A stretch of 23,241 nt of DNA from Promethearchaeota archaeon (GTDB taxonomy: Archaea > Asgardarchaeota > Lokiarchaeia > Sigyniarchaeales > SOKP01), in NCBI GenBank assembly GCA_048940645.1, contig JBHLOI010000054.1:1-23241 (forward strand), written 5' to 3'. Position 1 is the first letter of the stretch. Each line of letters opens with the position of its first letter. The notes below the pieces were generated by a model. The model was not told the DNA's origin. It was given only the letters and a program-made list of their open reading frames with translations, and did not search any database. The position numbers and the translations under genes are program-made. This document shows, in pieces, positions 2,293 to 20,329 of this stretch.

Positions 2293-3300
2293 ATGTCTGA
2301 TTCTGAATGGTATAAAGTAGATTTCCAAGATTTTATCAATAAATTCAGTAAAAATATTGTAATTGATACAGCACCAACTATACTATATTCTAAAAAAGAT
2401 AAAGAACATGAAGCTTATAATGCTTTAATCGCATTTTTCTTTATTTCTGGATTTTTGCTCATCTATATTGCAGTTTCTATGATTTTAATAGAACTTTACT
2501 TCAGTTTAATATTATTCGTGTTAGTTATAATTGTTGCAGCAATAGCTGATGCGATACTAATGTTGATTTATATACGTTCAAATATAGCAATCAAACCACT
2601 TGAAAGTTGGATTGAAATATATGAAAGCATTCCAAAAGGAAATGAAACTTACTACTGTTTTTCCTATTATATAGTTTTTTCAGGAAAATGTATTCCAAAT
2701 AAAGCAAGAAATGTAGTATATAAATTATATCAGGAGAACCTACTTAAGAGTAAGATTGATATTACTCAAATTGAAATCTATTTGAAAAAAAACAGAGAAG
2801 AATCTAATAAATTGGATGTTTTAGGTTACTTTTTTCAATATGGAGAGGGAAAGCCATTCAAAAGCGAGGATATTAATAGAAATTCATGGAAATTTTTTCC
2901 TTATGAAACAAGTTTTAATGAAAATTATTTAGCTATCGCTAATTGGGATCATCAATATGAATGGCGTAATGATCTAGAGCTTGATTACGATAAGTTACAT
3001 GATTATGCTCCTTGGGTAATAACCACGTGGAGTAAAGAAAAGTTAAAACCTTTAACTGACGTTTATAAAAAGTCATTAAATTGGGATTTAAGACAGCTTG
3101 ATTCAGAGCCTAAATTAAAGCCTTGGTTAAGTAATCTAGAAACTCAAACGTATGAAAGCTTTCGAGCATATAAGGATCTTCAATTGATGATTGAAGCAAT
3201 TGAAAATGTAATTGGAAATGATAAAGAACTAAAAAAATTAAAGGATTTAAAAGGATATTTATTAAAAATAAGAGCTTATTTTAGAGATTTAAATTATTAA
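2293..3300 (+). CDS. hypothetical membrane protein (two N-terminal TM helices, soluble C-terminal domain)
   Basis: 335-aa ORF with two long hydrophobic segments at about aa 43-93. No family recognised. Its 3' end overlaps the convergent kinase gene by 20 bp. Confidence 0.8.
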   Translation: MSDSEWYKVDFQDFINKFSKNIVIDTAPTILYSKKDKEHEAYNALIAFFFISGFLLIYIAVSMILIELYFSLILFVLVIIVAAIADAILMLIYIRSNIAIKPLESWIEIYESIPKGNETYYCFSYYIVFSGKCIPNKARNVVYKLYQENLLKSKIDITQIEIYLKKNREESNKLDVLGYFFQYGEGKPFKSEDINRNSWKFFPYETSFNENYLAIANWDHQYEWRNDLELDYDKLHDYAPWVITTWSKEKLKPLTDVYKKSLNWDLRQLDSEPKLKPWLSNLETQTYESFRAYKDLQLMIEAIENVIGNDKELKKLKDLKGYLLKIRAYFRDLNY

Positions 3301-5057: not shown

Positions 5058-6443
5058 ATGGCGTCGTTAGAAACCATAAATAGGTTAGAAATTGAGACTA
5101 ATAAGATTTTTTATGACAAAAAATCAGAATTATTATCGATATATATTTTTGATTTTGTTTTTATCGGAACTTATAAAAAATCTACTAAAGTAAGTAAAAT
5201 ATTGGATGATCTACATAATTCTTTTGGAAAAATTCCCTTAACTCGTGAAAATATATTTATTGTAGATTTCGTTACATATATGCCAATTAACGAAAATATG
5301 AAATTAAAGAAATTAAATTTATTAACGAAAAAAGAAAAGGAAAGGAAGAAGGAGGAACCTAAAAAAGAAAAGGTAAAAATATCTCCAGAAGAACAAGAAA
5401 GAAAAAAACGCAAGAAAGCTCTAGTAGTTAAGAAAGAGGCAAAAGAAGATGTGGATAAATTCAAGGAAAAGGATGTTGACTTAAGAAGAGATGATTTTGG
5501 GTATGTAGAAGCGGAAGAGGAAGCTTTATTAGAGGATTTTGATGAAGCTGAAGATTATGAAGAAGTTAAAACCGTAGAATCCAAACCTGCCCCATCTGTT
5601 GCACCTCCTCCTCCTCCGGGGGGTCCACTACCTGCCCCGAAAGCCGGGCGTGCAGCTACTCCTGATATGGGTCCTCCCGCTGAGTTTATAAAACGATTAG
5701 AAGAAGCTCCAGCAGATGTAATTCCAGAACCTCCTAAGCCTACTGTATATGAGATTAATATGGGCTTACAGTATTACTCTGTAATGATGGAACAGTCAAG
5801 TTATTTATTCTATGTTTATTTTTCTCATAAAGAATTGAAGATTGTTGATGAAGAGGGCAAGACAGTATTTGAAACAACAATTAGGATTAAAACCATCAAA
5901 AAAGAGCCTCCAATATTAGATTTAAGAGTAGAAGGTGAAGGTTTTGAGGTTCATCCATTATATGGCAAGGTTGAAGTAAAAAAAGATGCAGTAAATCCTC
6001 CAGTAATGATTTTTTCAATACTACCAATTAAAAAGAAAAAGAAAACAAAAAAGGAGAAAAAAGAGGGAGAGCGAAGATATTTACATATTTATATTAACTA
6101 TGAAGAGAAAACCATCAATCATTCGATTCTATCAATAATTGTGCAACCCAAACATTTTCGTTTAGATATTGGACCTATTCATCTAAATATAAGTAAAAGA
6201 ACAGCGGTGATAGTTTCATTTCTTTCTGTAGTAGTCGCAGTCGCATCTTTGGTTTTTACGATCTTTTCTATAGATACTACATCATCATTTGTAGATTTTG
6301 TCAGTAGTTTTGCTCCTGGATTAGGATCAATTCTCTTTGTTACAATCTTTCTAATTACGTTGTTTAAAGAGGGAATTTATCCTCTAAAAGAGAAAATAAG
6401 CTATTTCTTAAATTTCGATAAAACAGGCGTATTAATTAAGTGA
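5058..6443 (+). CDS. hypothetical membrane-anchored protein with Lys/Glu-rich, acidic and polyproline low-complexity linker and two C-terminal TM helices
   Basis: 461-aa ORF; APPPPPGGPLPAP tract; beta-rich globular segment; two hydrophobic helices near the C-terminus. Confidence 0.85.
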   Translation: MASLETINRLEIETNKIFYDKKSELLSIYIFDFVFIGTYKKSTKVSKILDDLHNSFGKIPLTRENIFIVDFVTYMPINENMKLKKLNLLTKKEKERKKEEPKKEKVKISPEEQERKKRKKALVVKKEAKEDVDKFKEKDVDLRRDDFGYVEAEEEALLEDFDEAEDYEEVKTVESKPAPSVAPPPPPGGPLPAPKAGRAATPDMGPPAEFIKRLEEAPADVIPEPPKPTVYEINMGLQYYSVMMEQSSYLFYVYFSHKELKIVDEEGKTVFETTIRIKTIKKEPPILDLRVEGEGFEVHPLYGKVEVKKDAVNPPVMIFSILPIKKKKKTKKEKKEGERRYLHIYINYEEKTINHSILSIIVQPKHFRLDIGPIHLNISKRTAVIVSFLSVVVAVASLVFTIFSIDTTSSFVDFVSSFAPGLGSILFVTIFLITLFKEGIYPLKEKISYFLNFDKTGVLIK

Positions 6444-6455
6444 AGACTTGAACCT

Positions 6456-7367
6456 TCAATTCTTATTTTTTATTTTTTCATTTATATAATTCCAGAACTT
6501 TTTCTTAAATTCACTTAATTCATTTACCTCTTTTAATTTAATAAAATACAAGGGTCGTTTCGCAATAATTGGATGATCTTTAATTTTTAGGATTTTAATC
6601 AATCCAGCTTTTTCGGCCTTATTTGCCATCATTTCGCTCATTATACTGATATAATTAGATTCGCTAACAGCTGTTATGATGGAATCGTTATCATTCATTT
6701 CAAGCTTTATATTTAATTTCTCGTAATCAAGAAACTGACGTTTAAAAATGTCTCTCATTCCAGAACCATGTTCTCTCCATACAAATGGATATTTAGTGAG
6801 TTGATCGAGAGTTATCATATTATCGCCATCTTTTAATAAGTCATGACCGGGAGAACATATAAAACTTAACTTATCTGTCCCTATATGGATATAATCAAAC
6901 TTATCTTTATCATAATTAATAAAACTACCGATTCCACTAAAATCTGCTAAACCTTTTTTTAAATTTTCGATGGAATTTTGAGAGTTATTAATAAGAATTT
7001 TAAAATCAACATTAGGATTCTCATTTCGAAAATCGGTAATAAATTTGGGCAGAACATGCGAACCTGGGATGGAAGAAGCTGAAATTACTATTTCTTCAAA
7101 TTTTTGTACACTAAATTTAGAGAGTTCCTGCTCGCATGAATCATATAAATTAATGATCTTTTTAGCATAACCTAACAATATGATTCCTGCTTCAGTTATC
7201 TCAAACTTTTTTGTAGTTCTTTCAATAAGAAGTACCCCAAAATCTTTTTCTAGTTGAGAAATTTGATGCGATAAAGTACTTTGAGAAATTGGAATATCTT
7301 TTGCTAATTCTGAGAAACTCTTATACTGGGTTAATTTAATAAAGTTCCTGAGATATTCTATATTCAT
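6456..7367 (-). CDS. LysR-family transcriptional regulator (CysL/selenium-metabolism-associated-like substrate-binding domain)
   Basis: HTH signature SFSELAKDIPISQSTLSHQISQLEKDFGVLLIERTT..FEITEAG; ASSIPG..LP and REHGSGMR in the effector domain. Start placed at MNIEYL (7367), the typical LysR N-terminus, rather than the TTG at 7409. Confidence 0.92.
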   Translation of the reverse strand: MNIEYLRNFIKLTQYKSFSELAKDIPISQSTLSHQISQLEKDFGVLLIERTTKKFEITEAGIILLGYAKKIINLYDSCEQELSKFSVQKFEEIVISASSIPGSHVLPKFITDFRNENPNVDFKILINNSQNSIENLKKGLADFSGIGSFINYDKDKFDYIHIGTDKLSFICSPGHDLLKDGDNMITLDQLTKYPFVWREHGSGMRDIFKRQFLDYEKLNIKLEMNDNDSIITAVSESNYISIMSEMMANKAEKAGLIKILKIKDHPIIAKRPLYFIKLKEVNELSEFKKKFWNYINEKIKNKN

Positions 7368-7382
7368 AATTTTTCTGTTCCT

Positions 7383-7410
7383 ATTGATTCTCTTTAAATA
7401 AAAAATCAAT
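7383..7410. promoter_or_regulatory. inverted repeat ATTGATT-N14-AATCAAT enclosing a TATA-like element upstream of lysR
   Basis: Perfect 7-bp arms at 7383-7389 and 7404-7410. The spacer reads TATTTAAA on the minus strand, about 26-33 nt upstream of the lysR ATG. Confidence 0.4.
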
Positions 7411-7537
7411 CATTCAATTAAGAATAACAGTTCACATTATATAATCTTTTTATCTAAAAAATAAATAATTATTTACGAAAAAACTAATAAATCTTAATTA
7501 ATTCAGTATCATAACACCTATATCAAGGTCAAAAACG

Positions 7538-7897
7538 ATGGCTGAAAAAAGTAAAACTTTCACGGTTGTAATTGGTAATGGTGCTTATACGTCGGAAAGA
7601 CCTTTCACTATGTTAAGGTTTGCTTACACTGCCCTTTTGGAAGAACATAAAGTTAATATATTTTTAGTAGAAGACGGAATATTTGTTGGGAAAAAAAATC
7701 AAAACCCTGCTACTTATGATAATGTAGGGAAATGGATGTCAGATGTGATTGAAGAGGGGGCAAAAGTTACAGCATGTGGCGTTTGCATGAAGGCAAGAGG
7801 TATATCTGAGGATGAATTGATAGAAGGTATATCCAAAACATCCATGCATGGATTTGTTAGTATGTGTGCAGAATCTGATCATATTTTATTTAGTTAA
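7538..7897 (+). CDS. DsrE/TusD-family sulfur relay protein
   Basis: 119 aa; AYTSER, IFLVEDGI, conserved ACGVCMKARGI motif. Confidence 0.88.
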   Translation: MAEKSKTFTVVIGNGAYTSERPFTMLRFAYTALLEEHKVNIFLVEDGIFVGKKNQNPATYDNVGKWMSDVIEEGAKVTACGVCMKARGISEDELIEGISKTSMHGFVSMCAESDHILFS

Positions 7898-7919
7898 TAT
7901 TAAAAATTTGGTGAATTAT

Positions 7920-8147
7920 ATGGGGAATAATTATGAATTAAATTGTACTGGCTTAGTGTGCCCTTTACCTGTTGCAAAAACTAAAAGAAAATTGATGGAG
8001 CTTCAGAGTGGTGATATTCTAGAGATTTCTGGAGATTTTGCTGAAGCAGGAGAAAATATCAAACGATATATTGATAAAACTGAAAACCAAATCTTAGCGT
8101 TTGAAATAGAGCGAGAAAATTTCTTTATTAAGATTCAAAAGACTTAA
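7920..8147 (+). CDS. tusA: TusA/SirA-family sulfur carrier protein
   Basis: LNCTGLVCPLPVAKTK (CPxP motif) and SGDILEI; ATG at 7920 is preceded by a GGTGA RBS, so the 7848 start in the ORF track is probably spurious. Confidence 0.88.
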   Translation: MGNNYELNCTGLVCPLPVAKTKRKLMELQSGDILEISGDFAEAGENIKRYIDKTENQILAFEIERENFFIKIQKT

Positions 8148-8185
8148 GTTTCATAAAATAATTTTATTTTTTCTTTAAATTTATT

Positions 8186-9427
8186 TTATTCTTGAATTAC
8201 ATTTTTAATTATCTCTTCCAACTCTTTTTCAGTAACAAACTTTTTAGTGGTTATTTTTAAATGAATCTTATTTAAAATTTCAGGGAGATAATCAACGTAT
8301 TCTCTATAACCCATTTGGTTACATTTTATTTTAATGGCATCTCCATGTAGAGTCGTAGGACCAAAAATAATTTGTTCCTCTTGTCCCACAATTTCTGGAC
8401 GATAAGGAGTAAAACACATCCAATATTTCTCTTTTTTTAAAGCGCTCATTACGTGGAGTTCGCTTTCATGCAAAAATGTATTTCTTCCAACTATAGGTTT
8501 ATTAAAAGGAATAGGTATCCCAGAATAATTTTCAACGAGTTTACTCAACTCATAGAGTTTAGAGAGATCAATACCTGTATCAATACCATATAACATTTCT
8601 AAGGAAACAACGACTTCCTCTAATGATGTATTTCCTGCACGATCACCCAGTTTATTTACTACTAGATCCATAAATGTAGCTCCTTGTTCTACTGCTGCGA
8701 TAGTAGACGCAGTTCCTAAACCAAAGTCATCATGAACATGAATCCCTATTGGGGTATTATTAACAACTGGTTTAATTTTCTTTATCATATATGAAATTGC
8801 AGATACATTACATGCTCCTACGGTGTCATAGAGCATTACCATCTTGACATCATTTTTAACTCCTTTTTCTATTGCCTTTATAAGAATAGATAAATCAGAA
8901 CGGGTTGCGTCCACGCAATCTAATATTGCTTTGCCCCCTAATCGTCTAATTCTTTTTAATACCGTAGGAATTAATGAAATAATAACATCAGGCGTAACTT
9001 TCTTATCTTCTGTGAATAGTCCAAGTTGCCAATCGGTTAAGACAATCCCAAAGCCAATAAAATCGCAATTAGCTTCTAAAGATTTATTAATCTCATCAGT
9101 CCATCTTGAAGGATTTGAACTTAAATGTGAATAAGTTTTCACTTTAATGCCTAATTCTTTAATTCTTTTCGCTAAGTCCCATTGATCTTGTACCTGACCT
9201 ATATATCCACAATCTATATGTTCCACATTTAATTTTTCTAATTTTTCAACAATCTGTATTTTTTCATCAAGAGTATAGAATACTCCAGGAGTTTCCTCAC
9301 CTTCTCTTATTGTTGAATCTCTTACAAAAACTCTTTGAGGGTATTGAAAATTTGCTCGTAAATCATCGAAATAATTTATTGGAGAAACACACCATTTATC
9401 ATTAAACCATTTTGTTCTTTTTTTCAT
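8186..9427 (-). CDS. DRE-TIM metallolyase, homocitrate/isopropylmalate synthase-like, paralogue 1 (no LeuA regulatory domain)
   Basis: RDSTIREGEETPG, DTVG, HVHDDFG metal-binding motif, LGDRAGN..LEEV, NKPIVG.N.FLHES. Start is 9427 or 9448. Confidence 0.88.
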   Translation of the reverse strand: MKKRTKWFNDKWCVSPINYFDDLRANFQYPQRVFVRDSTIREGEETPGVFYTLDEKIQIVEKLEKLNVEHIDCGYIGQVQDQWDLAKRIKELGIKVKTYSHLSSNPSRWTDEINKSLEANCDFIGFGIVLTDWQLGLFTEDKKVTPDVIISLIPTVLKRIRRLGGKAILDCVDATRSDLSILIKAIEKGVKNDVKMVMLYDTVGACNVSAISYMIKKIKPVVNNTPIGIHVHDDFGLGTASTIAAVEQGATFMDLVVNKLGDRAGNTSLEEVVVSLEMLYGIDTGIDLSKLYELSKLVENYSGIPIPFNKPIVGRNTFLHESELHVMSALKKEKYWMCFTPYRPEIVGQEEQIIFGPTTLHGDAIKIKCNQMGYREYVDYLPEILNKIHLKITTKKFVTEKELEEIIKNVIQE

Positions 9428-9548
9428 AAGATAAAGCCTTTTTATCATTAATCTGATTTTGTAATAAATGATTTGATATATATCTTTTCAAATTAAAAAT
9501 TTAAATAGATTAACACCATATAATTAAATTAAAATTTTATCTTGAAAG

Positions 9549-10826
9549 TTGATATTCTTGAAAAAGATTTCTTCTACTAAAATATTAATCCTATTAACTT
9601 TTTTTTCTTCTGCTTTATTTAGTATAATAACTCCGATGGCTAAAGAACTTACCGATAGTTTGAATTTAGGTGGTGAAGGAATAGTCTCATTAATAAATTC
9701 TATATTTTTGATGGTTGGTGCGGTTAGTTCACTCTTTTGGGCTATCTTAGGGGATAAATTTCCCCGCAAAGTCTTATTAATTATTGCTACTTTAGAATGG
9801 TCTATTCTTATTCTATTAACAATTTTATCCACTGATTTTTATTCCCTGTTGACCTTTCAAATATTAACCGCAATAGGTTTTGGTGCAGCTTTACCATTAG
9901 TTTTCTCCCTAACAGTTGATCTTGTTGAATCTGAACAAAGAGGAAAAAGATTTGGGATCCTAAGTGCAGTTTATGTTTTAGGAAATGGTTTGGGTCAAGC
10001 TCTATCCGGATTTTTAATTGATGTATATCCATGGCAAACTCCTCTTATAATTATTTCTATCGGGGGCTTTATTTGTACTGGATTACTATTTTTTATTGAG
10101 GAACCTCAAAGAGGAACAATGGATGATCTCCGTTCCAGTGAAGAATCGGTAAAATATGACTACAGAATTAAGAGAGCAGATCTCAAAAATATTTTGAAAA
10201 TAAAATCAACCTTATGGATTTTAATTTTTAATTTTGTTATGTTCATTGCAATTGGCTCAATATCGTCATTTTTTATTTCAATGCTTAAAAATGACTATAT
10301 ACTCTCATCAACATTGGCTACTGTGTTTCTGATTATAGTTTTTGGTAGCCAGATTCCCAGCGGTCCTATATTCGGGAGATTAGGTGATAAAAAACGGGAA
10401 ACTAATTTAAATGGGCGAATGAAAGTAGTTCTTTTTTGTATCATTAGTGGTTCTATCTTTTATATCATCGGATTCTTAACTTCATTTATTTCTAAAAACC
10501 TGATATTTGCTTTTATTTTCCTTATCTTCGCATTAATAGCGGCATTCTTATTTGGCGGAATTGATCCTCTTACTCAGGCGACTCTGGGAGAAATAAATCC
10601 ACCTCAAATAAGATCTACCATATATTCGCTAAATTATTTAACGTATACATTTGGCAGGAGTATAAGTTTAATCTTTCTTGGTCAATTCTTTATGTTATTT
10701 AATAATCAATATAGCCCTGGATATTTAATATTAGTAATATTAGCTCTACTAAGTAGCTTGTTTTTAATACCAATCTTAAAATATCTCCCAAAAGATGTCG
10801 AAAGAATTAAATCAGGAGAAATATAA
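9549..10826 (+). CDS. MFS transporter
   Basis: About 12 hydrophobic helices; motif A-like ILGDKFPRK and FGRLGDKKR; EEPQRG in the central loop; TTG start. Confidence 0.92.
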   Translation: MIFLKKISSTKILILLTFFSSALFSIITPMAKELTDSLNLGGEGIVSLINSIFLMVGAVSSLFWAILGDKFPRKVLLIIATLEWSILILLTILSTDFYSLLTFQILTAIGFGAALPLVFSLTVDLVESEQRGKRFGILSAVYVLGNGLGQALSGFLIDVYPWQTPLIIISIGGFICTGLLFFIEEPQRGTMDDLRSSEESVKYDYRIKRADLKNILKIKSTLWILIFNFVMFIAIGSISSFFISMLKNDYILSSTLATVFLIIVFGSQIPSGPIFGRLGDKKRETNLNGRMKVVLFCIISGSIFYIIGFLTSFISKNLIFAFIFLIFALIAAFLFGGIDPLTQATLGEINPPQIRSTIYSLNYLTYTFGRSISLIFLGQFFMLFNNQYSPGYLILVILALLSSLFLIPILKYLPKDVERIKSGEI

Positions 10827-10843
10827 TCCCAATTGTATCATAG

Positions 10844-11545
10844 ATGTTAATTAAAGAAGAATTATGTATAGGATGTGGGCAATGTGTTATAATTTGTCCA
10901 GTAAATGCAATTAGTATTGTAAATGAAAAAGCAATTATTAATGAAGAAAAATGTGTAGAATGCTATGTATGTTATCGTGATGCTAATTGCCCAACAAAAG
11001 CGATTAAATCAGAAAGACTTAAATGGCCTAGAATAATTAGAAATCCGTTTAGTAGCGTAGTAGCTACTCATAAATTAACCGGAATGCCTGGTCGAGGCAC
11101 AGAAGAAATTAAGACCAATGATATTACTAATCGCTATAAACATGGAGAAATTGGGTTTTCAATAGAGATTGGTCGACCTGGAGTTGGCACTTTATTAAAA
11201 AATATTGAATTATTTACAACTCGATTATCTAAGGTTAGTGTAATTTATGAAAAAGAAAGCCCTGTTACAGCAATTATAATTGATGAAGAAGGCCATATTA
11301 ATCCCGAATTAAAAGAAGAACGAGTACTTTCCGCTATAATTGAATTCAAAATTTCAGAAAATAAATTAAATGAAATTCTGCAAATAATTAGAGATATAGA
11401 TGAATTAATTGACACAGTGTTCACTGTTGGAGTGATTACTAGAGTAGCTGAAGATAATTCTATTCCGGTAATAAACTTATTAGAAAAAGAGGGTTTTAAT
11501 GTTAAGCCAAACGCTAAAATAAATTTAGGTTTAGGAAAAATTTGA
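10844..11545 (+). CDS. 2x[4Fe-4S] ferredoxin-domain protein with uncharacterised C-terminal domain
   Basis: CIGCGQCVIICP and CVECYVCYRDANCP cluster motifs, followed by GRGTEEIKTND and EIGRPGVG segments. Confidence 0.88.
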   Translation: MLIKEELCIGCGQCVIICPVNAISIVNEKAIINEEKCVECYVCYRDANCPTKAIKSERLKWPRIIRNPFSSVVATHKLTGMPGRGTEEIKTNDITNRYKHGEIGFSIEIGRPGVGTLLKNIELFTTRLSKVSVIYEKESPVTAIIIDEEGHINPELKEERVLSAIIEFKISENKLNEILQIIRDIDELIDTVFTVGVITRVAEDNSIPVINLLEKEGFNVKPNAKINLGLGKI

Positions 11546-11563
11546 TATCTAAAGGTGGTATAA

Positions 11564-12151
11564 ATTACACATTCTTTACACAGAAAAGGAACTATAAACA
11601 GTTTAAAAAAGGATTATGTGCTTTTAACATGTCTCGCGAAAGGTTATAATAGAGAGGATGTAGAAAGTCGCAAAAAATTGATTAAGATCGCTGAGATATT
11701 TAGTCAATACAATCCTGTAAATATTATCCCAAAATTTACCTGGAAAGTCTCTCCAGTTATTACTGCAGTATATAATAATATAAACACAGTAAAACAAGTT
11801 ATTCAAAGATTAAAAAGAGAGAATTTCGGAATTTCGATTGTTATAAGTGGAATCATATCAGAAATTAGAAATATTATTAACGAGATGGATTTAATTATGC
11901 ATACAGTACATTTATCACTGGGTATTTTCGGTAAAAAGGAATTACTGCCACCTGAGCAAAAGATTTTAGAAATAACCACCATGTGTGGACATCACTGCAT
12001 ATCTACGCAATCTGTAGAACACTATTTCAATTTAATTAGAGAAGGAAAAATTTCAATAGAAAAATCAGCACAAAATTTAGCTAAACCATGTGTTTGTGGA
12101 ATATTTAATACATCTAGGGCAATTGAAATTTTAAATGAACTTAAAAAATAA
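11564..12151 (+). CDS. conserved hypothetical Cys-motif protein, partner of the ferredoxin-domain protein; probable ATT start
   Basis: TTMCGHHC and PCVCGIFN motifs. The frame is open 18 codons upstream of the GTG at 11618 (ITHSLHRKGTINSLKKDY), bounded by an in-frame TAA at 11561-11563, with an AGGTGG RBS 5 nt before the ATT. Confidence 0.8.
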   Translation: MTHSLHRKGTINSLKKDYVLLTCLAKGYNREDVESRKKLIKIAEIFSQYNPVNIIPKFTWKVSPVITAVYNNINTVKQVIQRLKRENFGISIVISGIISEIRNIINEMDLIMHTVHLSLGIFGKKELLPPEQKILEITTMCGHHCISTQSVEHYFNLIREGKISIEKSAQNLAKPCVCGIFNTSRAIEILNELKK

Positions 12152-12186
12152 ATTTTTTTTTCTTAAAAAGAAATTAAATAAATAAT

Positions 12187-13398
12187 TTATTCAACAATAT
12201 TAATTGCTAAATCTTCAAGTTCTTTTTCAGAGATATAATCTTGGCTTTTAATTTTTTCTTGTATTTTTTTTTGAATAATTTTAAGATGTTCTTCAGTTGG
12301 ATTTAGACCCATTTTTTCCAATTTTGCTTTTATTGCCCTACTTTGGAGAGTTGTAGAGCCAAATATTAATTTTCGGGTTTGTCCAACTACATAAGGTTGA
12401 AATAATTCCCAAGTCACCCAATTGCCTCTCAAGATCTGTTCTACATGTAAATCTGATTCATGTACAAAACAATTTTTTCCCACTATTGGTTTATGAGGTT
12501 GAATTGGGGTTTTGCTATATCGCTCAATAAGTTGAGAAATCTCCATGATCATGTCAAGTTTTAAACCTAAATCAATTCCGTATAAGATTTCTAAAGCCAT
12601 TATTACTTCTTCAGTTGCTGCATTGCCTGCTCTATCACCTAAGCCATTGAAAACTACATCTACAACTTCTGCACCCCCTTCAACTCCTGCAAGTGTATTT
12701 GCTACAGCTAATCCTAAATCCTGATGTGCATGGATCTCAACCGGAATTTCTTTAACAATACCTTTAGTAAATTTTACTACATCCTTAAAAGCAATCGGAA
12801 GAGCGCATCCATTTCCATCATAAACAACCACTCGATCTACTCCCGCATCAACAGCAAGACTTAAAAATTTTTTCCAATATTTGGGAATTACACGTCCAGA
12901 ACCAAATGCCACATAAGCGCCTTGGTCTTTGGCATATTCTATACCCTGTGAAATTCTGCTAAAAACATCATCCCTTGTTTTTATAGCAGGTCCAGGGACA
13001 AGTAAAAAATTGATATGATCTGCTCCTGCGGCTAAAATGTCATCAACCTCTTTTTTGATATCTTCTACATACATTCTAGCATGCGATGATAATTTCGTTT
13101 TTAATCCTTCTTTTTTAAGAGCTTTGAATGTATCTGCATGCTCTTTAATACCAGCCGCATATCCCACTTCTATTTCGGGAATCCCCATTTCTTCTAATAA
13201 TTTAGCAATCTCGATTTTTTGATCAATAGTGAAATAAGTTCTGGGTGTTTCTTCGCCTTCTCTTAAGGTGTCATCTTTAATGATTACTTTTTTTGGTAAA
13301 TCCATTTGATTTCGTATCGATTCAAAGAAATTCCATTCAAAACTCCACCATCTCTGATTTTTATCCATCCGCATCGATGCCCACGCATTCATCCACAT
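12187..13398 (-). CDS. DRE-TIM metallolyase, homocitrate/isopropylmalate synthase-like, paralogue 2 (no LeuA regulatory domain)
   Basis: KDDTLREGEETPR, EIEVG, HAHQDLG, GLGDRAGNAATEEV, HKPIVGKN.FVHES. Confidence 0.88.
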   Translation of the reverse strand: MWMNAWASMRMDKNQRWWSFEWNFFESIRNQMDLPKKVIIKDDTLREGEETPRTYFTIDQKIEIAKLLEEMGIPEIEVGYAAGIKEHADTFKALKKEGLKTKLSSHARMYVEDIKKEVDDILAAGADHINFLLVPGPAIKTRDDVFSRISQGIEYAKDQGAYVAFGSGRVIPKYWKKFLSLAVDAGVDRVVVYDGNGCALPIAFKDVVKFTKGIVKEIPVEIHAHQDLGLAVANTLAGVEGGAEVVDVVFNGLGDRAGNAATEEVIMALEILYGIDLGLKLDMIMEISQLIERYSKTPIQPHKPIVGKNCFVHESDLHVEQILRGNWVTWELFQPYVVGQTRKLIFGSTTLQSRAIKAKLEKMGLNPTEEHLKIIQKKIQEKIKSQDYISEKELEDLAINIVE

Positions 13399-13493
13399 TT
13401 AACACACATTATTTAAACTTTAATTTTTAAGAATAATCATATATTATATTCTAATTTAATATACTTTGAAATATAATTTATGAGGTTAAAAAT

Positions 13494-13700
13494 ATGCCAG
13501 TTGTTCATGTAAATATGTGGAAAGGAATTTCCGAAGAAAGGGTTAAACAAATAATAACGGGAATAACTAAAGTTTTTGTCGACATGGATATCCCTGCTCG
13601 AGCAGTAGAAGTAATTGTCCATGAAATCCCAAAATCTCATTGGGGTATTGAAGGAAAACCAGCTACAGAATCTCGCCCTGATGCGAAACCACCTCAATGA
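13494..13700 (+). CDS. 4-oxalocrotonate tautomerase family protein (DmpI-like)
   Basis: 68 aa with catalytic Pro1 after Met (MPVVHVNMWKG) and VEVIVHEIPKSHWGIEG; GAGGT RBS upstream. Confidence 0.9.
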   Translation: MPVVHVNMWKGISEERVKQIITGITKVFVDMDIPARAVEVIVHEIPKSHWGIEGKPATESRPDAKPPQ

Positions 13701-14006: not shown

Positions 14007-15197
14007 CTATTTCTTTATTCTTGCTGAGACCCAGTCATAATACCCTTTATCTTCTAAATGATCAGGAATTTCAGCAAAGAATTGAGATGTTATATCTTTA
14101 ACATGTTTAGCGGCTATTGGATGGAACATCATAGCAAGATCTAAGCCCACTAAGCTAAGAGAGAGAGCGTTAATAATTTCCCATATAGGTCCTCTATATT
14201 GGCGCAATCCCCACTCAGGAGCCTGCTTCTCGCTCATCCATGCCTCACGTGCACCCCAAGCGTTTGTCGTACCTCCACTAATTGGATAAGCTAAATCTTC
14301 TTCACCTAGTAAGCCTGCTATTCGCATTCTCTGATAGATACTAAAACTATATTCCATACCATATCCGAGTGTGGCACATGTTGGGTCCATCACTATTCGA
14401 TTTCTTGGTAATCCTAATTCTATTGCATCTTTATTCATCTTGATTTGATTATTCAAATCTAAACTTGTCCAGAGAAGACAATTGTGGTCATACTTTACCG
14501 CTAATGGGATAACTTCCTCCCATGTTGCCTTATCTGCGGCTGAAAGCATTAAAACCTCACTTTCTGTTGCAGCTGCAGCAGCTTTAAAGAGCTCTATATC
14601 TTTAACTTTATTTCCTGAGCACCCAATAATTACTGGAACATCAACGGTTTGTAATATATCCTCCAGAAATTTTACAGATTGAGAAACAGGAGCGTCTCCC
14701 ATTGCTGGATCGATTTCAAGTGAATGAAATGTAATACATTCAGCTCCAAATTTATCAACAGCAAATTTTGCCCATTGTGCTGGATGTCCTAATACATCTC
14801 CATATTCTTGCTTAATGGGTTTAGGGAGCATCATTTTTGCACCCATATCAAATACATCATAAGTCACAAGAGGAGGATGTGGATTTCGTTTATCAAGTCC
14901 AAGGAAATTATAGAAGGGGGGTACCATCTCTCCTCCAATTACTGCCTTCTTACCGTTTGAACGTACAAATTCTACTGTTTGAATCGTTCCCGGATAAGAA
15001 ACATCAAGTGAAAATTTGGTTGCTGTCCACTCTGCTTTCCCGATACCAGGAAGGGCTGCTTGAGCTGCTGCTTGAACGAGACTTGGAAGCATTTGAAATT
15101 CTAGATATTCTGCGAATAATTCTACATTTTTTAATTCAATCTCTTCAGTTTCTTTCAGTAACTCTGCAAATTTTTTACTAATCTCTTCAAATGAAAT
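14007..15197 (-). CDS. cdhD: acetyl-CoA decarbonylase/synthase delta subunit (corrinoid Fe-S protein small subunit); probable ATT start
   Basis: IGGEMVPPFY, VFD, PAQWAK, VDVPVIIGCSGN..KD, IVMDPT.ATLGYGMEYS, L.GEEDL.YP, NAWGAREAW, RGPIWE. The frame is open 35 codons upstream of the ATG at 15092, giving an archaeal CdhD-like N-terminus (FAELLKETEEIELKNVELFAEYLEF). Confidence 0.93.
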   Translation of the reverse strand: MSFEEISKKFAELLKETEEIELKNVELFAEYLEFQMLPSLVQAAAQAALPGIGKAEWTATKFSLDVSYPGTIQTVEFVRSNGKKAVIGGEMVPPFYNFLGLDKRNPHPPLVTYDVFDMGAKMMLPKPIKQEYGDVLGHPAQWAKFAVDKFGAECITFHSLEIDPAMGDAPVSQSVKFLEDILQTVDVPVIIGCSGNKVKDIELFKAAAAATESEVLMLSAADKATWEEVIPLAVKYDHNCLLWTSLDLNNQIKMNKDAIELGLPRNRIVMDPTCATLGYGMEYSFSIYQRMRIAGLLGEEDLAYPISGGTTNAWGAREAWMSEKQAPEWGLRQYRGPIWEIINALSLSLVGLDLAMMFHPIAAKHVKDITSQFFAEIPDHLEDKGYYDWVSARIKK

Positions 15198-16133: not shown

Positions 16134-17006
16134 ATGATTCTTGAAAATTTAGATTTTGAAAAACATCATGGACTCGGAAATGACTATGTTATTATAAGTG
16201 ACCTCAAATGGAATATACCTGATGAAAAGAAAGCAGATTTAGCTAAAGTATTATGTCAGCCTCATTTTTCCATTGGAGCTGATGGTTTATTATTTGTATG
16301 CAATTCAGAAAAGGCAGATATAAAAATGAGGATGTTTAATCCAGATGGTTCAGAAGCAGAAATGTGTGGCAATGGTATTAGGTGTTTTTCCAAGTACATT
16401 TATGAAAATAATATTTTAAAAAATGAATATATAAAAATTGAAACTCCTAAGGGTATAATCATTATTAGATTAAAGGTAAAAACTAATAAAGTAATTTCTG
16501 TTAAAGTTGATATGGGTTCTCCAATATTAGATTGTGAAGAGATTCCTGTTGAATTAGATGAAATTGTGGATAGATGTGTAAATGAACAAATTGTAGTTTT
16601 AGATAAAATATTTAATTTCACAGCGGTTTCAATGGGAAATCCCCATGCAATTATTTTTACTCAAAACGTAATTAGTGATAAGGATTTGAATATATATGGT
16701 GCTGCTCTAGAGTCTAATAAACATTTCCCAAATAAAACTAATGTTGAATTTGTAAAAATTGTTTCAAAAACGGAAGCAAGATTAAGAGTTTTTGAAAGGG
16801 GTGTAGGTATTACACTATCATGCGGGACGGGAACTTGTGCTGCTGTAGTAGCAGGTACGATATTGGGATTATTTGAAAAAAATGCACCCATTACTGTCCA
16901 TAATGACGGAGGAGATTTAATAATTACTTATGATGGCAAAAATGTCTATATGGAAGGACCAATTGTTAAAGTTTTCAGTGGATTTATTGATAAAATTGAA
17001 TTTTAA
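16134..17006 (+). CDS. dapF: diaminopimelate epimerase
   Basis: FEKHHGLGNDY, GADG, FNPDGSEAEMCGNGIRC, SMGNPH, NVEF, ERGVG.TLSCGTG. Confidence 0.97.
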   Translation: MILENLDFEKHHGLGNDYVIISDLKWNIPDEKKADLAKVLCQPHFSIGADGLLFVCNSEKADIKMRMFNPDGSEAEMCGNGIRCFSKYIYENNILKNEYIKIETPKGIIIIRLKVKTNKVISVKVDMGSPILDCEEIPVELDEIVDRCVNEQIVVLDKIFNFTAVSMGNPHAIIFTQNVISDKDLNIYGAALESNKHFPNKTNVEFVKIVSKTEARLRVFERGVGITLSCGTGTCAAVVAGTILGLFEKNAPITVHNDGGDLIITYDGKNVYMEGPIVKVFSGFIDKIEF

Positions 17007-17026
17007 TTAATTCAACAAGTATTTAG

Positions 17027-18349
17027 ATGGTTTTAATGGAGAGTAAAGATTGGTTGGATTCAAAGGGATTAGAATATCGAAATGAGATTCTGTATTTTAA
17101 TGATGTAAACACTATAGAATTGGCAAAAAAATTTGGAACCCCTATCTATGTAATAAGTGAAGAAATCATACGAGAGAAATATAGAACTCTAAAAAATGTA
17201 CTCACTTCAGAGTATAAGAAAAATCATATCCATTATGCTGTTAAAGCTAACTCCAGCATTTCAATATTAAAAATCTTAAATACTGAAGGTGCTTTTTTTG
17301 ATTGTACATCTCAAGGCGAAATTTTTACTTGTTTTAAGGCAGGAATTGCGCCAGAAAGAATCATTTATACTGGTAATATGTTTACTAATGACGATTTTGA
17401 ATTTTCTGTTAAGAATGATATTATAATTAATTTAGACAGTATTAGCCAATTGGAACGATTAATAAAAATCCATGAAAAATTAAGGAAAGAAAAGAAAATT
17501 ATCTCATTTAGAATAAATCCTGAGTTTGGAGCAGGACATCATGTTCACGACATCACTGCTGGAAGGGAAGTTAAATTCGGAATTTTAGAACATCAAATTA
17601 TAGAAGCCTACAAGAAAGCTAAAGATTTTGGTTTTGAGAGATTTGGCATTCATCAACACATTGGTTCAGGAATTAATAACCCATATAATTTTGAAAAAGC
17701 AACGGATAAGTATTTTTCTATAATAAAGAAATTAGCAAGTTCCTTAAAGATTCATTTTGATTTTATCGATTTTGGAGGAGGTTTAGGAATCCCCTATCGT
17801 CCTAATGAGGAGTCTTTCGATCTTGAAGTATATAATGAGATTGTAGTAAAACCATTTAAAAAATTAATAAATGTTGAAAGCCTAGGGGAACCAATTTTTA
17901 AATTAGAACCGGGAAGGTTTTTAGTTGCTGAATCATGCATATTAATAACTCAGATAAATACGATTAAAGATAACGGATACAAATTATTTGCTGGAGTAGA
18001 TGCTGGATTTAATACTTTGATTCGGCCCACAATGTATGGATCTTATCATCATATTATGGCATGCGATAAAAATGAAAAAGAAAAAATATTAAAATATGAT
18101 ATAGCTGGACCTATATGTGAATCTGGTGATGTTCTTGGAAAAGAAAGAGAATTAACAAAATTAAAAGAGGGTGATTATCTTGCCATTCTTGATGCTGGAG
18201 CATATGGTTATGTAATGAGCAGTAATTATAATTCTAGACCACGTTCAGCTGAAATCTTAATTAGTGATGGCCATATTTTTAAAATTCGAGAAGCTGAAGT
18301 CTTTGATGATTTATTAAGAAACCAGATTGTCCCAGATCACTTAAAATAA
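17027..18349 (+). CDS. lysA: diaminopimelate decarboxylase
   Basis: FGTPIYV, YAVKAN (PLP lysine), HIGS, DFGGG.GIPY, EPGR, GPICESGD, GAYG..MSSNYNSRPR. Confidence 0.97.
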   Translation: MVLMESKDWLDSKGLEYRNEILYFNDVNTIELAKKFGTPIYVISEEIIREKYRTLKNVLTSEYKKNHIHYAVKANSSISILKILNTEGAFFDCTSQGEIFTCFKAGIAPERIIYTGNMFTNDDFEFSVKNDIIINLDSISQLERLIKIHEKLRKEKKIISFRINPEFGAGHHVHDITAGREVKFGILEHQIIEAYKKAKDFGFERFGIHQHIGSGINNPYNFEKATDKYFSIIKKLASSLKIHFDFIDFGGGLGIPYRPNEESFDLEVYNEIVVKPFKKLINVESLGEPIFKLEPGRFLVAESCILITQINTIKDNGYKLFAGVDAGFNTLIRPTMYGSYHHIMACDKNEKEKILKYDIAGPICESGDVLGKERELTKLKEGDYLAILDAGAYGYVMSSNYNSRPRSAEILISDGHIFKIREAEVFDDLLRNQIVPDHLK

Positions 18350-18466
18350 AATTTAAATTAATTAATTTTTGGGAAAAAAATTAAAATTCGCATTACTCTT
18401 TATTATTATGAGATAGAATTATAAAATAAGGAATGATTAAGGCTTGGATACCCTTTAATCATTTAG

Positions 18467-18528
18467 ATGAAGAGTCGGCGTTATGAAATCTGCTTATTCA
18501 GATTGATGAAAAGACTGATCTGCTCTGA
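18467..18528 (+). ncRNA. candidate archaeal box C/D guide sRNA
   Basis: C-like ATGAAGA (18467-73), guide GTCGGCGTT, D' ATGA (18483-86), internal stem AATCTG/CAGATT, C' TGATGA (18504-09), guide AAAGACTGATCTGCT, D box CTGA (18525-28). A locally GC-richer patch in a 233-bp convergent intergenic gap. Confidence 0.55.
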
Positions 18529-18582
18529 AAAGTTTTATAATTTTATCTCTCTTTATAAAGAAATCTAATCATGATATTATCT

Positions 18583-19404
18583 TCACAATCCTAATACTTC
18601 ACTTGTGCTATAAATTTTAGCTTCCTTAGCCTGTGTTATGAATTTTATTGCTTTGATAGCTCCTTCAGCAAAGCAATATCTACTATGTGCTTGATGTTTC
18701 AATTCAATTCTTTCACCAGTTCCAGCATAAAGAATGATATGATCGCCAACAATGTCCCCTGCACGTATTGAGTGAAATCCTAATTCATTTTTTCCTCCAA
18801 TTATTCTCTTATTTGGACCACGATTTCGGCCAAATTTGACTGTTTGCTCGAAATCTGAACCCAAACTAGTACTAATAATCTGACCTATTTTTAAAGCTGT
18901 TCCACTTGGAGCATCAATTTTCCTATGATGGTGTGCCTCTATTACTTCTATATCCCAATTAGATAAAAAGTTTGTTAAAACCGATGCCATTTTGAATAAT
19001 ACATTTACACCTATCGCCATATTAGGAGAAATTACTGAAGGAACGTGAAAATTCTTTACTGAATTTTCAAATTCATTCAAAAATTCTTGGGATAATGCAG
19101 TTGTTCCAATCACACAGCGAATCCCATTTTTTGCACAAATTAGGCAATTTTTTTCTGTTGCTTGTGCTACAGTAAAATCAACCGCTACTTCGGGTTTTGT
19201 TTCATCTATTATTAATTGTAAGTTATTTACATCAGTTATTTTAATATTCTTAGAATCTTTTACAGCTACAAAAGATCCAAGTTTATCACCAATATTATTG
19301 ATATCACAAGCTGCAACAACTTCTATCTCTTCATCTTTCAGAGCTAATTCACTAATTAATTTTCCCATAGCCCCAGTGGGTCCTAAAACTAGTAATTTTA
19401 TCAA
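18583..19404 (-). CDS. dapB: 4-hydroxy-tetrahydrodipicolinate reductase
   Basis: GPTGAMG, VDFT, VIGTT, EAHHHRKIDAPSGTA, RAGDIVGDH, ERIELKHQA; TTG start with AGGTAG upstream. Confidence 0.97.
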   Translation of the reverse strand: MIKLLVLGPTGAMGKLISELALKDEEIEVVAACDINNIGDKLGSFVAVKDSKNIKITDVNNLQLIIDETKPEVAVDFTVAQATEKNCLICAKNGIRCVIGTTALSQEFLNEFENSVKNFHVPSVISPNMAIGVNVLFKMASVLTNFLSNWDIEVIEAHHHRKIDAPSGTALKIGQIISTSLGSDFEQTVKFGRNRGPNKRIIGGKNELGFHSIRAGDIVGDHIILYAGTGERIELKHQAHSRYCFAEGAIKAIKFITQAKEAKIYSTSEVLGL

Positions 19405-19429
19405 TTTTAACTACCTAAAATTTAGTTTA

Positions 19430-20329
19430 TTAAATTAAATTTAGATCCTTTAGGACTTGTTTAATTTTTTTCTTATTATCTTTTAATGGCGGTGTTAGTG
19501 GTAATCTCATTCTACTATCCATTAAACCCATTAAATCTGCAGCATATTTAACAGGTCCAGGATTTGTTTCGATAAATAAAACTTTAAATAAATCAAACAA
19601 TTCTAATTGTTTTTTACGAGCCTTATCCCATTCTCCATTTAACATGAAATTTGTGAATTCCACTAATTGAGCTGGTATGATATTAGAAGCTACACTTACA
19701 ACGCCTTTACCCCCAAGTGCCATTATATGATATGTCATCCCGTCATCACCACTAAGAACAATAAAATTTTCTGGTGTTGTTTTGATAATTTTTGTAATTT
19801 GATCAATATTTCCGCTTGCGCATTTAATACCAACGATATTATCTTTCGAATATGCTAATTTAGATACAGTTTCTGGTTCTAAATTACGCCCGGTACGACT
19901 GGGAACGTTATATAAAATTATCGGTAAAGAAACTGAGTCCGCAACTGCCGAAAAATGATCAATTAATGAATGTTGTACTGGTTTATTATAATAGGGTACA
20001 ACAACTAAGCAACCATCAGCGCCTGCTTTTTCGGCATATTGGCAAAGAGAGATCGCTTCTTTTGTTGAATTGCTTCCAGTACCTGCTAAGACAAACGGGT
20101 CCTTTCCGCTTTTTTTCGCCTCATCAATTGCAATATCCATTGCAATATGATGTTCCTCATGGGAAAGGGTTGCAGATTCTCCAGTAGTACCCATAGTTAA
20201 AAGATGACAATTATTCTTTATTTGATATCTAATAAATTCTCGATATTTTTCTTCATTTATAGAATAATCTTCATTAAAAGGAGTAATTAATGCAGTTATG
20301 GTATTTCTTAATTTTTCTAAACTAAACAT
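19430..20329 (-). CDS. dapA: 4-hydroxy-tetrahydrodipicolinate synthase
   Basis: TALITPF, GTTGESATL, GTGSNST, PYYNKP, LYNVPSRTG, IVGIK (Schiff-base Lys), LSGDD, ETNPGPVK. Confidence 0.97.
   Translation of the reverse strand: MFSLEKLRNTITALITPFNEDYSINEEKYREFIRYQIKNNCHLLTMGTTGESATLSHEEHHIAMDIAIDEAKKSGKDPFVLAGTGSNSTKEAISLCQYAEKAGADGCLVVVPYYNKPVQHSLIDHFSAVADSVSLPIILYNVPSRTGRNLEPETVSKLAYSKDNIVGIKCASGNIDQITKIIKTTPENFIVLSGDDGMTYHIMALGGKGVVSVASNIIPAQLVEFTNFMLNGEWDKARKKQLELFDLFKVLFIETNPGPVKYAADLMGLMDSRMRLPLTPPLKDNKKKIKQVLKDLNLI

Follow-up and report, generated by a model that had tools for sequence, protein, structure and literature searches.

The locus

We analysed contig JBHLOI010000054.1 of assembly GCA_048940645.1, a stretch of 23,241 nucleotides from a Promethearchaeota archaeon, which we call the window. 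Its GC content is low (~30%), and the public homologues nearest to its proteins carry the labels Hodarchaeota, Hermodarchaeota or Promethearchaeota. Our subject is a run of nine genes at positions 6456-13700, above all the five in the middle: two enzymes of the DRE-TIM superfamily (paralogues A and B), an MFS transporter, an iron-sulfur (Fe-S) protein and a small partner protein. An earlier note, made from the sequence alone, had treated all nine as one uncharacterised cassette. All nine open reading frames (ORFs) were verified with the domains it had assigned, and their spacing and divergent and convergent arrangement are as it described, except that two start sites (TusA and partner) had to be corrected. 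Below, "core module" marks the five inner genes and "backbone" the four genes outside the module.

6456-7409, minus strand: LysR regulator (PF00126 and PF03466), divergent from DsrE-TusA; backbone, outside the module
7538-7897, plus strand: DsrE (PF02635, 78 bits); backbone, outside the module
7920-8147, plus strand: TusA (PF01206, 67 bits; CPLP motif); backbone, outside the module
8186-9448, minus strand: DRE-TIM paralogue A ("REGEE" type, similar to homocitrate synthase (HCS) and LeuA; PF00682, 149 bits); core module
9549-10826, plus strand: MFS transporter (PF07690, 157 bits), first gene of its operon; core module
10844-11545, plus strand: Fe-S subunit, 2x[4Fe-4S] (Fer4 matches, residues 1-60 only); core module
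11564-12151, plus strand: partner subunit, Cys/His, 195 aa, ATT start (no family match); core module
12187-13398, minus strand: DRE-TIM paralogue B ("REGEE" type; PF00682, 175 bits; HCS_D2, 46 bits); core module
13494-13700, plus strand: 4-OT, 4-oxalocrotonate tautomerase family (PF01361, 43 bits); backbone, outside the module

LysR is read leftward, DsrE-TusA rightward, A leftward, MFS/Fe-S/partner rightward, B leftward and 4-OT rightward. The gaps within the MFS/Fe-S/partner operon are 17 and 18 nt. A sigma-70 promoter scan of the window did no better than shuffled sequences, and the sigma-70 model is not applicable to an archaeon.

For TusA the best start is the ATG at 7920, with GGTGA 5 nt upstream. 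The partner starts at the ATT at 11564 and not at the GTG at 11618. This ATT directly follows an in-frame TAA, has GGTGG 5 nt upstream and restores the N-terminus (M)THSLHR, which is conserved in all relatives. In profile searches, position 1 of the partner profile aligns to residue 1 of nearly every relative. Ordinary ORF calling cuts the partner by 18 codons, and the invariant THSLHR is lost (window 11553-11566). In paralogue A, the Met at residue 8 is a possible true start.

A five-gene insert in a conserved backbone

We searched 135 genomes of the window's taxonomic family with the DsrE protein and then compared twelve DsrE loci. A single DsrE orthologue is present in 112 of the 135 genomes. 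The gene order around it is conserved: helicase, a hypothetical protein (hyp335), FGGY kinase, hyp461, LysR on the minus strand, DsrE, TusA, 4-OT and/or CdhD, hyp170, DapF and LysA. LysR accompanies DsrE-TusA in 11 of 12 cassette-free loci.

In cassette-free relatives, LysR-DsrE-TusA runs straight into 4-OT or CdhD. One genome (G263) has 4-OT directly after TusA, followed by CdhD, with no cassette in between. Its TusA-4-OT spacer was aligned to both borders of the window's five-gene block, and the alignment agrees with an insertion. In a second genome (G250), CdhD is the next window gene beside TusA, and the DRE-TIM, MFS and Fe-S genes lie on another contig. DsrE adjoins DRE-TIM genes only in the source genome (G000) and in G260 and G235. 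Most other genomes that have both carry them on separate contigs or with over 100 kb between them (~117 kb in G188, ~319 kb in G149). Hence the genes at 8186-13398 are an accessory module of five genes, inserted between TusA and 4-OT in the lineage of G000, G260 and G235. The borders of the insert show neither terminal repeats, direct or inverted, nor a tRNA.

Because the LysR-DsrE-TusA trio is conserved without the cassette and abuts 4-OT or CdhD, two ideas of the earlier note fall. The first was sulfur insertion through TusA and DsrE; the trio is near-universal in the family and mostly far from DRE-TIM genes. The second tied 4-OT to paralogue B through a shared promoter. In cassette-free relatives 4-OT adjoins TusA or CdhD, it adjoins B only in the two nearest relatives, and the divergent promoter region between B and 4-OT arose only because the block was inserted there. 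In our reading, neither LysR-DsrE-TusA nor 4-OT works together with the module.

The family assignments of the backbone genes hold. TusA and DsrE have Pfam domains above the cut-off, and the Cys of the CPxP motif is present as CPLP. 4-OT begins with Met-Pro and scores 43 bits against a PF01361 cut-off of 22. The best NCBIfam match of LysR is the selenium-metabolism-associated LysR, at 217 bits below the cut-off of 250. It is paired divergently with DsrE-TusA, as is usual for LysR regulators.

One could still read all nine genes as a single pathway, in which TusA and DsrE would pass sulfur to the Cys-motif protein, 4-OT would act on the product and LysR would regulate the whole. We give this idea hardly any credence. 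The genes are tightly packed in the window and in its two nearest relatives, but the family keeps LysR-DsrE-TusA irrespective of the cassette, usually on a separate contig or at a distance of over 100 kb, and TusA is joined directly to 4-OT or CdhD where the cassette is missing. Outside genus-level relatives, DsrE, TusA, LysR and 4-OT were not found beside the Fe-S/partner pair or the synthases.

The Fe-S subunit and its partner

The Fe-S protein and the partner are an obligate gene pair. A scan with the partner alignment, using one genome per species, gave 80 loci, and in 78 of them the partner is directly preceded by the Fe-S gene. These loci come from Asgard archaea, Bathyarchaeia, Bacillota, Chloroflexota and Desulfobacterota. 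The partner family comprises 884 representatives (clusters at 50% identity, E <=0.001). Both families are plentiful in Asgard metagenomes, where they are annotated as hypothetical or with misleading names.

Eight Cys of the Fe-S subunit are invariant in 30 sequences (C8, C11, C14, C18, C37, C40, C43 and C49) and make up the two ferredoxin motifs of a 2x[4Fe-4S] protein. A C-terminal domain of ~170 aa follows, with invariant motifs, among them GRGTEE.K.ND and GRPG.G, in which Arg, Lys, Glu and Asp abound. This domain has no sequence relative in Pfam, NCBIfam or PDB. Though NCBI names some homologues DUF362, the Fe-S subunit does not match PF04015 (DUF362) at E <=0.01.

Sequence and profile searches of Pfam, NCBIfam and PDB gave no match for the partner, and a Pfam scan of 23 diverse homologues with E up to 1 gave no consistent family. 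The two subunits have no detectable homology to each other (hhalign probability 0.3%). Residues of the partner that are invariant across archaea and bacteria include H3, H6, R7, D17, N53, S91, C141-G-H143, C176, C178 and N182. Three Cys are invariant and a fourth is variable. In aconitase, IspH and IspG the catalytic [4Fe-4S] cluster is held by three Cys. The partner likewise has exactly three invariant Cys together with invariant His, coupled to a 2x[4Fe-4S] electron-transfer domain, but it resembles these enzymes in neither sequence nor fold.

Two natural fusions join the partner to a C-terminal Fe-S domain (P0393, 411 aa; P0423, 397 aa). In P0393 this domain is a polyferredoxin of Fer4_11 type; the AOR operons of Bathyarchaeia encode a similar one downstream of the pair.

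Tandem copies of the pair occur within single loci: five in L086, from a metagenome-assembled genome of Thermodesulfobacteriota, and further cases in L074, L080 and L076. They stand beside TctC-type receptors and GntR regulators, and look like the paralogue expansion of a catabolic enzyme.

A predicted heterodimer

The two subunits are predicted to form a heterodimer. Three complex predictions gave ipSAE values of 0.93, 0.93 and 0.92, against 0.02 for the best control; 58 of 80 solved complexes attain this ipSAE mark, as do 2 of 110 mismatched pairs. The runs share at least 94% of their contacts. The model of the partner is confident by itself (pLDDT 88) and rises to at least 90 in the complex; the Fe-S subunit alone is modelled poorly at residues 38-94. 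Sequence searches turned up no similar solved complex, and the prediction is therefore unlikely to be recall.

On the partner side, the modelled interface consists of the N-terminus (residues 3-8) and segments 110-125, 143-150 and 174-178. On the Fe-S side it consists of the conserved stretches 83-95, 111-114 and 218-233, plus the ferredoxin-cluster loops 15-21 and 40-46. The interface would thus bring together the conserved N-terminus and Cys/His residues of the partner and the conserved motifs of the Fe-S subunit.

A Foldseek search of PDB with the partner model returned nothing at E <=0.001. In full VIA-align searches, both the partner and the Fe-S C-domain matched only generic ferredoxin-like or ACT-like folds (Z <=6.5), and the fold of the C-domain itself is of the generic ferredoxin-like kind. 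Possibly the heterodimer represents a new type of enzyme.

Two DRE-TIM enzymes without the catalytic Glu

Paralogues A and B are 36% identical and are the sole PF00682 (HMGL-like) genes in the source genome, which is 89.6% complete. The nearest solved structure is the HCS of S. acidocaldarius (6ktq; E 1e-52 for B, 6e-42 for A), so the label "homocitrate-synthase-like" that both had received is fair. With this archaeal, LysS-type HCS and with LeuA/CimA/HCS enzymes they have in common the HMGL-like TIM barrel and HCS_D2, the REGE- start of the signature, HxH and both His of H-x-S-x-x-H. Like LysS-type HCS, they are without the LeuA regulatory domain.

Several motifs differ from canonical HCS/LeuA/CimA. 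The signature R[D/E]GEQ has become REGEE (IREGEETPG in A), GERAGN has become GDRAGN, and HESGIH, of the form HxSGIH, has become HES[D/E]LH (HESELH in A). The Glu of F-x-x-E-D-x-x-R is absent: the stretch reads LDCVDATR in A and VAFG-SGR in B, whereas 6ktq, 6e1j and 3rmj have AED or CED. In LeuA/CimA/HCS this Glu is the proposed general base for acetyl-CoA enolisation. A and B also carry a Trp-rich N-terminal extension. The altered pattern is constant in 52 Asgard orthologues and in 44 bacterial or metagenomic relatives of ~40% identity, and the R-E and HxH residues of the Arg and metal triad are present in all members. In seven canonical Asgard homologues from other families, by contrast, the Q is kept in 7/7, and the ED pattern and the G pattern (H-x-[SA]-G-x-H) are matched in 6/7.

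Both proteins score below all NCBIfam cut-offs. The best matches are to NF002085 (281 and 304 bits, cut-off 517), TIGR02090 (260 and 285, cut-off 485) and TIGR02146 (197 and 242, cut-off 414). In a quick maximum-likelihood tree, 60 REGEE sequences split from the canonical ones with an SH-aLRT of 100, and A and B form separate, deep branches rather than a pair of recent duplicates. Judged by motifs, cut-offs and tree, A and B belong to a separate "REGEE" clade. They fall outside ordinary LeuA/CimA/HCS, and the grouping with LeuA/CimA/AksA that the earlier note had named as fatal to its proposal did not turn up.

The REGEE clade has lost one acidic residue and gained two, and it has kept the Arg, the Glu/His/His metal ligands and both His. 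Loss of the Glu, with acidic residues gained elsewhere around an intact Arg and metal site, suggests a relocated base and hence an altered chemistry, which could mean another donor, another stereochemistry or a reaction of the lyase or aldolase type. DmpG/BphI, the 4-hydroxy-2-oxovalerate aldolase, belongs to the same DRE-TIM superfamily. These aldolases use a catalytic His that lies four positions after the Arg of the signature, and it is there that the REGEE enzymes have their new Glu. The match to DmpG is weak (TIGR03217 87 bits against a cut-off of 286; PDB 1nvm E 2.5e-14), and no DmpF-type partner is present. 4-OT and DmpG act in the same meta-cleavage pathway, yet the 4-OT of the window is a backbone gene that is unlinked to the module. 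The DRE-TIM enzymes are a new variant within a known superfamily.

Alternatively, A and B could be plain anabolic synthases of the LeuA/CimA type that serve branched-chain amino acids. As the only PF00682 genes of the source genome they would fill this role, and aconitase-family and Iso_dh genes are found elsewhere in that genome. We consider this very unlikely. The scores far below every equivalog cut-off and the missing Glu speak against it, as do the canonical motifs of the seven homologues from other families. The distribution is also patchy: B orthologues (71-91% identical) occur in 34 of 400 Asgard genomes, all in the window's family, and alongside one or more REGEE matches many genomes show additional, weaker matches to the family. 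Finally, the two aconitase-family genes of the source genome are long (~650-670 aa), lie by citrate synthase and are not LeuCD-like. There is one Iso_dh gene.

The source genome has no canonical LeuA/CimA/HCS-type gene, and in many genomes of its genus the only matches are weaker and not of the REGEE type (best E ~1e-55). The missing synthase may reflect leucine auxotrophy or an assembly gap. The genome does carry a canonical Si-citrate synthase. The Re-citrate synthase family is heterogeneous (PMC12016533).

The analogy to AksA-style chain elongation, also drawn earlier, is weak. Beside A or B, no aconitase-type isomerase and no IPMDH-type enzyme was found in 33 Asgard genomes, and both enzymes are without the catalytic Glu. 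Aconitase subunits are adjacent in two of three bacterial REGEE loci.

Linkage of the pair, the transporter and the synthases

Linkage was counted in the 33 species genomes that have a B orthologue. A adjoins B in 22 of them and the MFS gene is adjacent in 15. The Fe-S/partner pair lies within 5 kb of B in 14, in at least four gene orders.

One MFS orthologue links the pair and the synthases. In 34 of 57 Asgard loci it precedes the Fe-S pair. It is single-copy and accompanies the pair in G179, the synthases in G233, G242 and G162, both in the window and neither in G188.

Of the family genomes with a completeness of 90% or more, 33 encode a REGEE enzyme and 30 of these also have the pair; of the 56 that encode none, 12 have it. 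The counts were tabulated by hand and are descriptive only, since related genomes are not independent. Of three bacterial contigs picked through a B homologue, one holds the pair (47% and 36% identity), divergent from a GntR-TctCBA-REGEE enzyme-HpcH aldolase string that ends in two ICL-family lyases.

The five-gene core is a real, recurring association in Asgard archaea. The cassette proposed earlier thus stands in part: its five inner genes recur elsewhere in several orders, but the grouping of all nine does not go beyond chance. The gene-neighbourhood comparison that had been suggested as a check comes out in the same way, with the pair, MFS, A and B co-occurring across genomes and LysR-DsrE-TusA and 4-OT as mere neighbours.

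The adjacency of the DRE-TIM genes might nevertheless be incidental. MFS, Fe-S and partner would then form a self-contained unit for electron transfer or for aldehyde- or acid-linked redox chemistry, and the REGEE enzymes would be unrelated to it. Most Asgard pair loci (~28) are without a DRE-TIM gene and show a DtxR-headed string instead. In Bathyarchaeia and Bacillota the pair is accompanied by AOR, MoaD and polyferredoxin genes, one relative carries a polyferredoxin fusion, and B lies away from the pair in 19 of the 33 genomes. Chance adjacency would, however, account poorly for the phyletic co-occurrence, for a linkage that survives at least four rearrangements and recurs independently on a bacterial contig, or for an MFS orthologue that alternates between the two enzyme sets. 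We therefore regard it as unlikely.

Other neighbours of the synthases were recorded along the way. A DUF362 protein lies near B in 13 of the 33 genomes, as a separate neighbour. The DUF362 proteins near B have an inserted 2x[4Fe-4S] domain (loci L012, L013, L019 and L108-L123) and are also found near one bacterial REGEE locus (L100). The source genome has five DUF362 genes (on C17, C22, C54, C76 and C68), none of them in the window. B loci without an adjoining MFS gene (L104-L134) often have a QueT-family (7 loci) or a Vut_1/YhhQ-family gene (5 loci) instead; three unrelated transporter families thus alternate at one position beside B. Downstream of paralogue A lie genes for an RsmB/F methyltransferase, small GTPases, Fwd subunits, a DNA methylase and gelsolin, which we set aside as what looks like unrelated synteny.

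Wider genomic contexts

Bacterial REGEE genes accompany TctABC or MFS transporters, aconitase subunits, PrpD, and HpcH and ICL-family lyases. Two other bacterial REGEE contigs carry IclR, MFS or TctC, aconitase subunits and PrpD. The pair itself is found in bacteria in a setting of TctC and GntR, in Bacillota with polyferredoxin, MoaD and AOR, and in Bathyarchaeia with AOR, polyferredoxin, MoaD, 2-hydroxyacid dehydrogenase and glycerate kinase. The common theme of these contexts is transported small carboxylic acids and aldehydes with low-potential electron transfer.

AOR-type tungsten enzyme complexes of the AorABC kind, in which polyferredoxin subunits provide the wiring, are the closest parallel to the Bathyarchaeia and Bacillota strings, where the pair would fit an electron-accepting or electron-donating catalytic module. 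One may conjecture that it replaces the AOR flavoprotein subunit. The window has no AOR beside its pair, and the pair has no flavin- or nucleotide-binding domain.

The commonest Asgard string around the pair (~24-28 loci, L017-L067) comprises a DtxR-family repressor, an uncharacterised 252-aa protein, in some cases the MFS transporter, the Fe-S subunit, the partner, F420_oxidored, DUF1028 and Zn-ADH. The repressor at its head hints that the pair is under metal-dependent control.

This string brings in another alternative, a metal-chelator system. The HCS-like enzymes would make a polycarboxylate chelator, the MFS transporter would move it, and the heterodimer would reductively release or handle the metal. 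An iron-dependent DtxR-family repressor heads the commonest Asgard pair operon (24 loci), NikR lies nearby in 3 loci, and an F420_oxidored-type reductase follows the pair. Invariant His and Cys of the partner, some of them N-terminal, TctC receptors near bacterial pairs and the HCS as nearest solved relative of A and B can be read in the same direction. But a chelator system fits poorly with the bacterial locus where as many as five pairs stand in tandem among genes of catabolic appearance, and with contexts of AOR, 2-hydroxyacid dehydrogenase and glycerate kinase. No recurring metal transporter or chelator-assembly gene was found. Furthermore, the residues with which HCS binds the distal carboxylate of 2-oxoglutarate are not conserved in A and B. 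On balance a chelator system is improbable.

A proposed carboxylic-acid module

We propose that the five-gene insert is a carboxylic-acid module that combines uptake with a lyase or synthase reaction at a C-C bond and a redox reaction linked to ferredoxin, with LysR-DsrE-TusA and 4-OT independent of it. We put this reading slightly above even odds, at roughly 55%. The data show the insertion, the predicted heterodimer, the altered motifs and the linkage counts; from these we infer substrate, direction and chemistry.

In this proposal, the MFS transporter would import a di- or tricarboxylic hydroxy- or oxo-acid, although export is possible too. The DRE-TIM pair, possibly as a heteromer, would use the relocated base to form or cleave a C-C bond at a 2-oxo or 2-hydroxy acid bound to the metal. 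In the heterodimer, electrons at ferredoxin level would travel by way of the two [4Fe-4S] clusters and reach a Cys3/His metal site. This putative site would then reduce or oxidise the substrate or product of the DRE-TIM enzymes.

Several points weigh against the carboxylic-acid module. The separation of B from the pair in 19 of 33 genomes, together with the 12 of 42 pair-positive genomes that have no REGEE enzyme, means that the pair also works without the synthases. The Asgard linkage evidence comes from one family only, and its counts are therefore inflated by inherited synteny. In Asgard archaea the pair is most often found with a DtxR repressor, an F420/NADP oxidoreductase and a Zn-ADH, a context that fits metal or aldehyde themes equally well. 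The candidate Cys3/His metal site is deduced from residue conservation only.

A wider claim is possible but falls short of probable. The heterodimer would be a new class of ferredoxin-dependent metalloenzyme with a catalytic Cys3/His metal centre at the subunit interface, to which the conserved N-terminus of the partner belongs. Together with the base-relocated REGEE enzymes and a dedicated MFS transporter it would form an undescribed anaerobic route for carboxylic acids in Asgard archaea, Bathyarchaeia and anaerobic bacteria.

Other genes in the window

Two conserved backbone proteins at 2293-3300 and 5058-6443 (335 and 461 aa) have no Pfam match and are syntenic with LysR-DsrE-TusA family-wide. 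A lone CdhD, the delta subunit of acetyl-CoA decarbonylase/synthase, is encoded at 14007-15092 and is conserved beside 4-OT; the window contains no other Cdh subunit. A diaminopimelate lysine cluster occupies 16134-20329, with dapF and lysA followed by dapB and dapA on the opposite strand. Lysine synthesis here needs no homocitrate synthase.

Implications

Separating the insert from the backbone of LysR-DsrE-TusA and 4-OT removes a misleading lead towards sulfur insertion. We found no paper that describes either the heterodimeric Fe-S protein or the Glu-less clade of HCS-like enzymes, and a full-text search with motif strings gave chance matches only, in papers on oyster and fish immunity, degrons and tumour antigens. 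These two families, so far without a function, are now defined well enough for testing. Automatic annotation labels such proteins "isopropylmalate/homocitrate synthase", "DUF362" or "indolepyruvate ferredoxin oxidoreductase subunit". Metabolic reconstructions of Asgard archaea built on these labels would be wrong at these genes.

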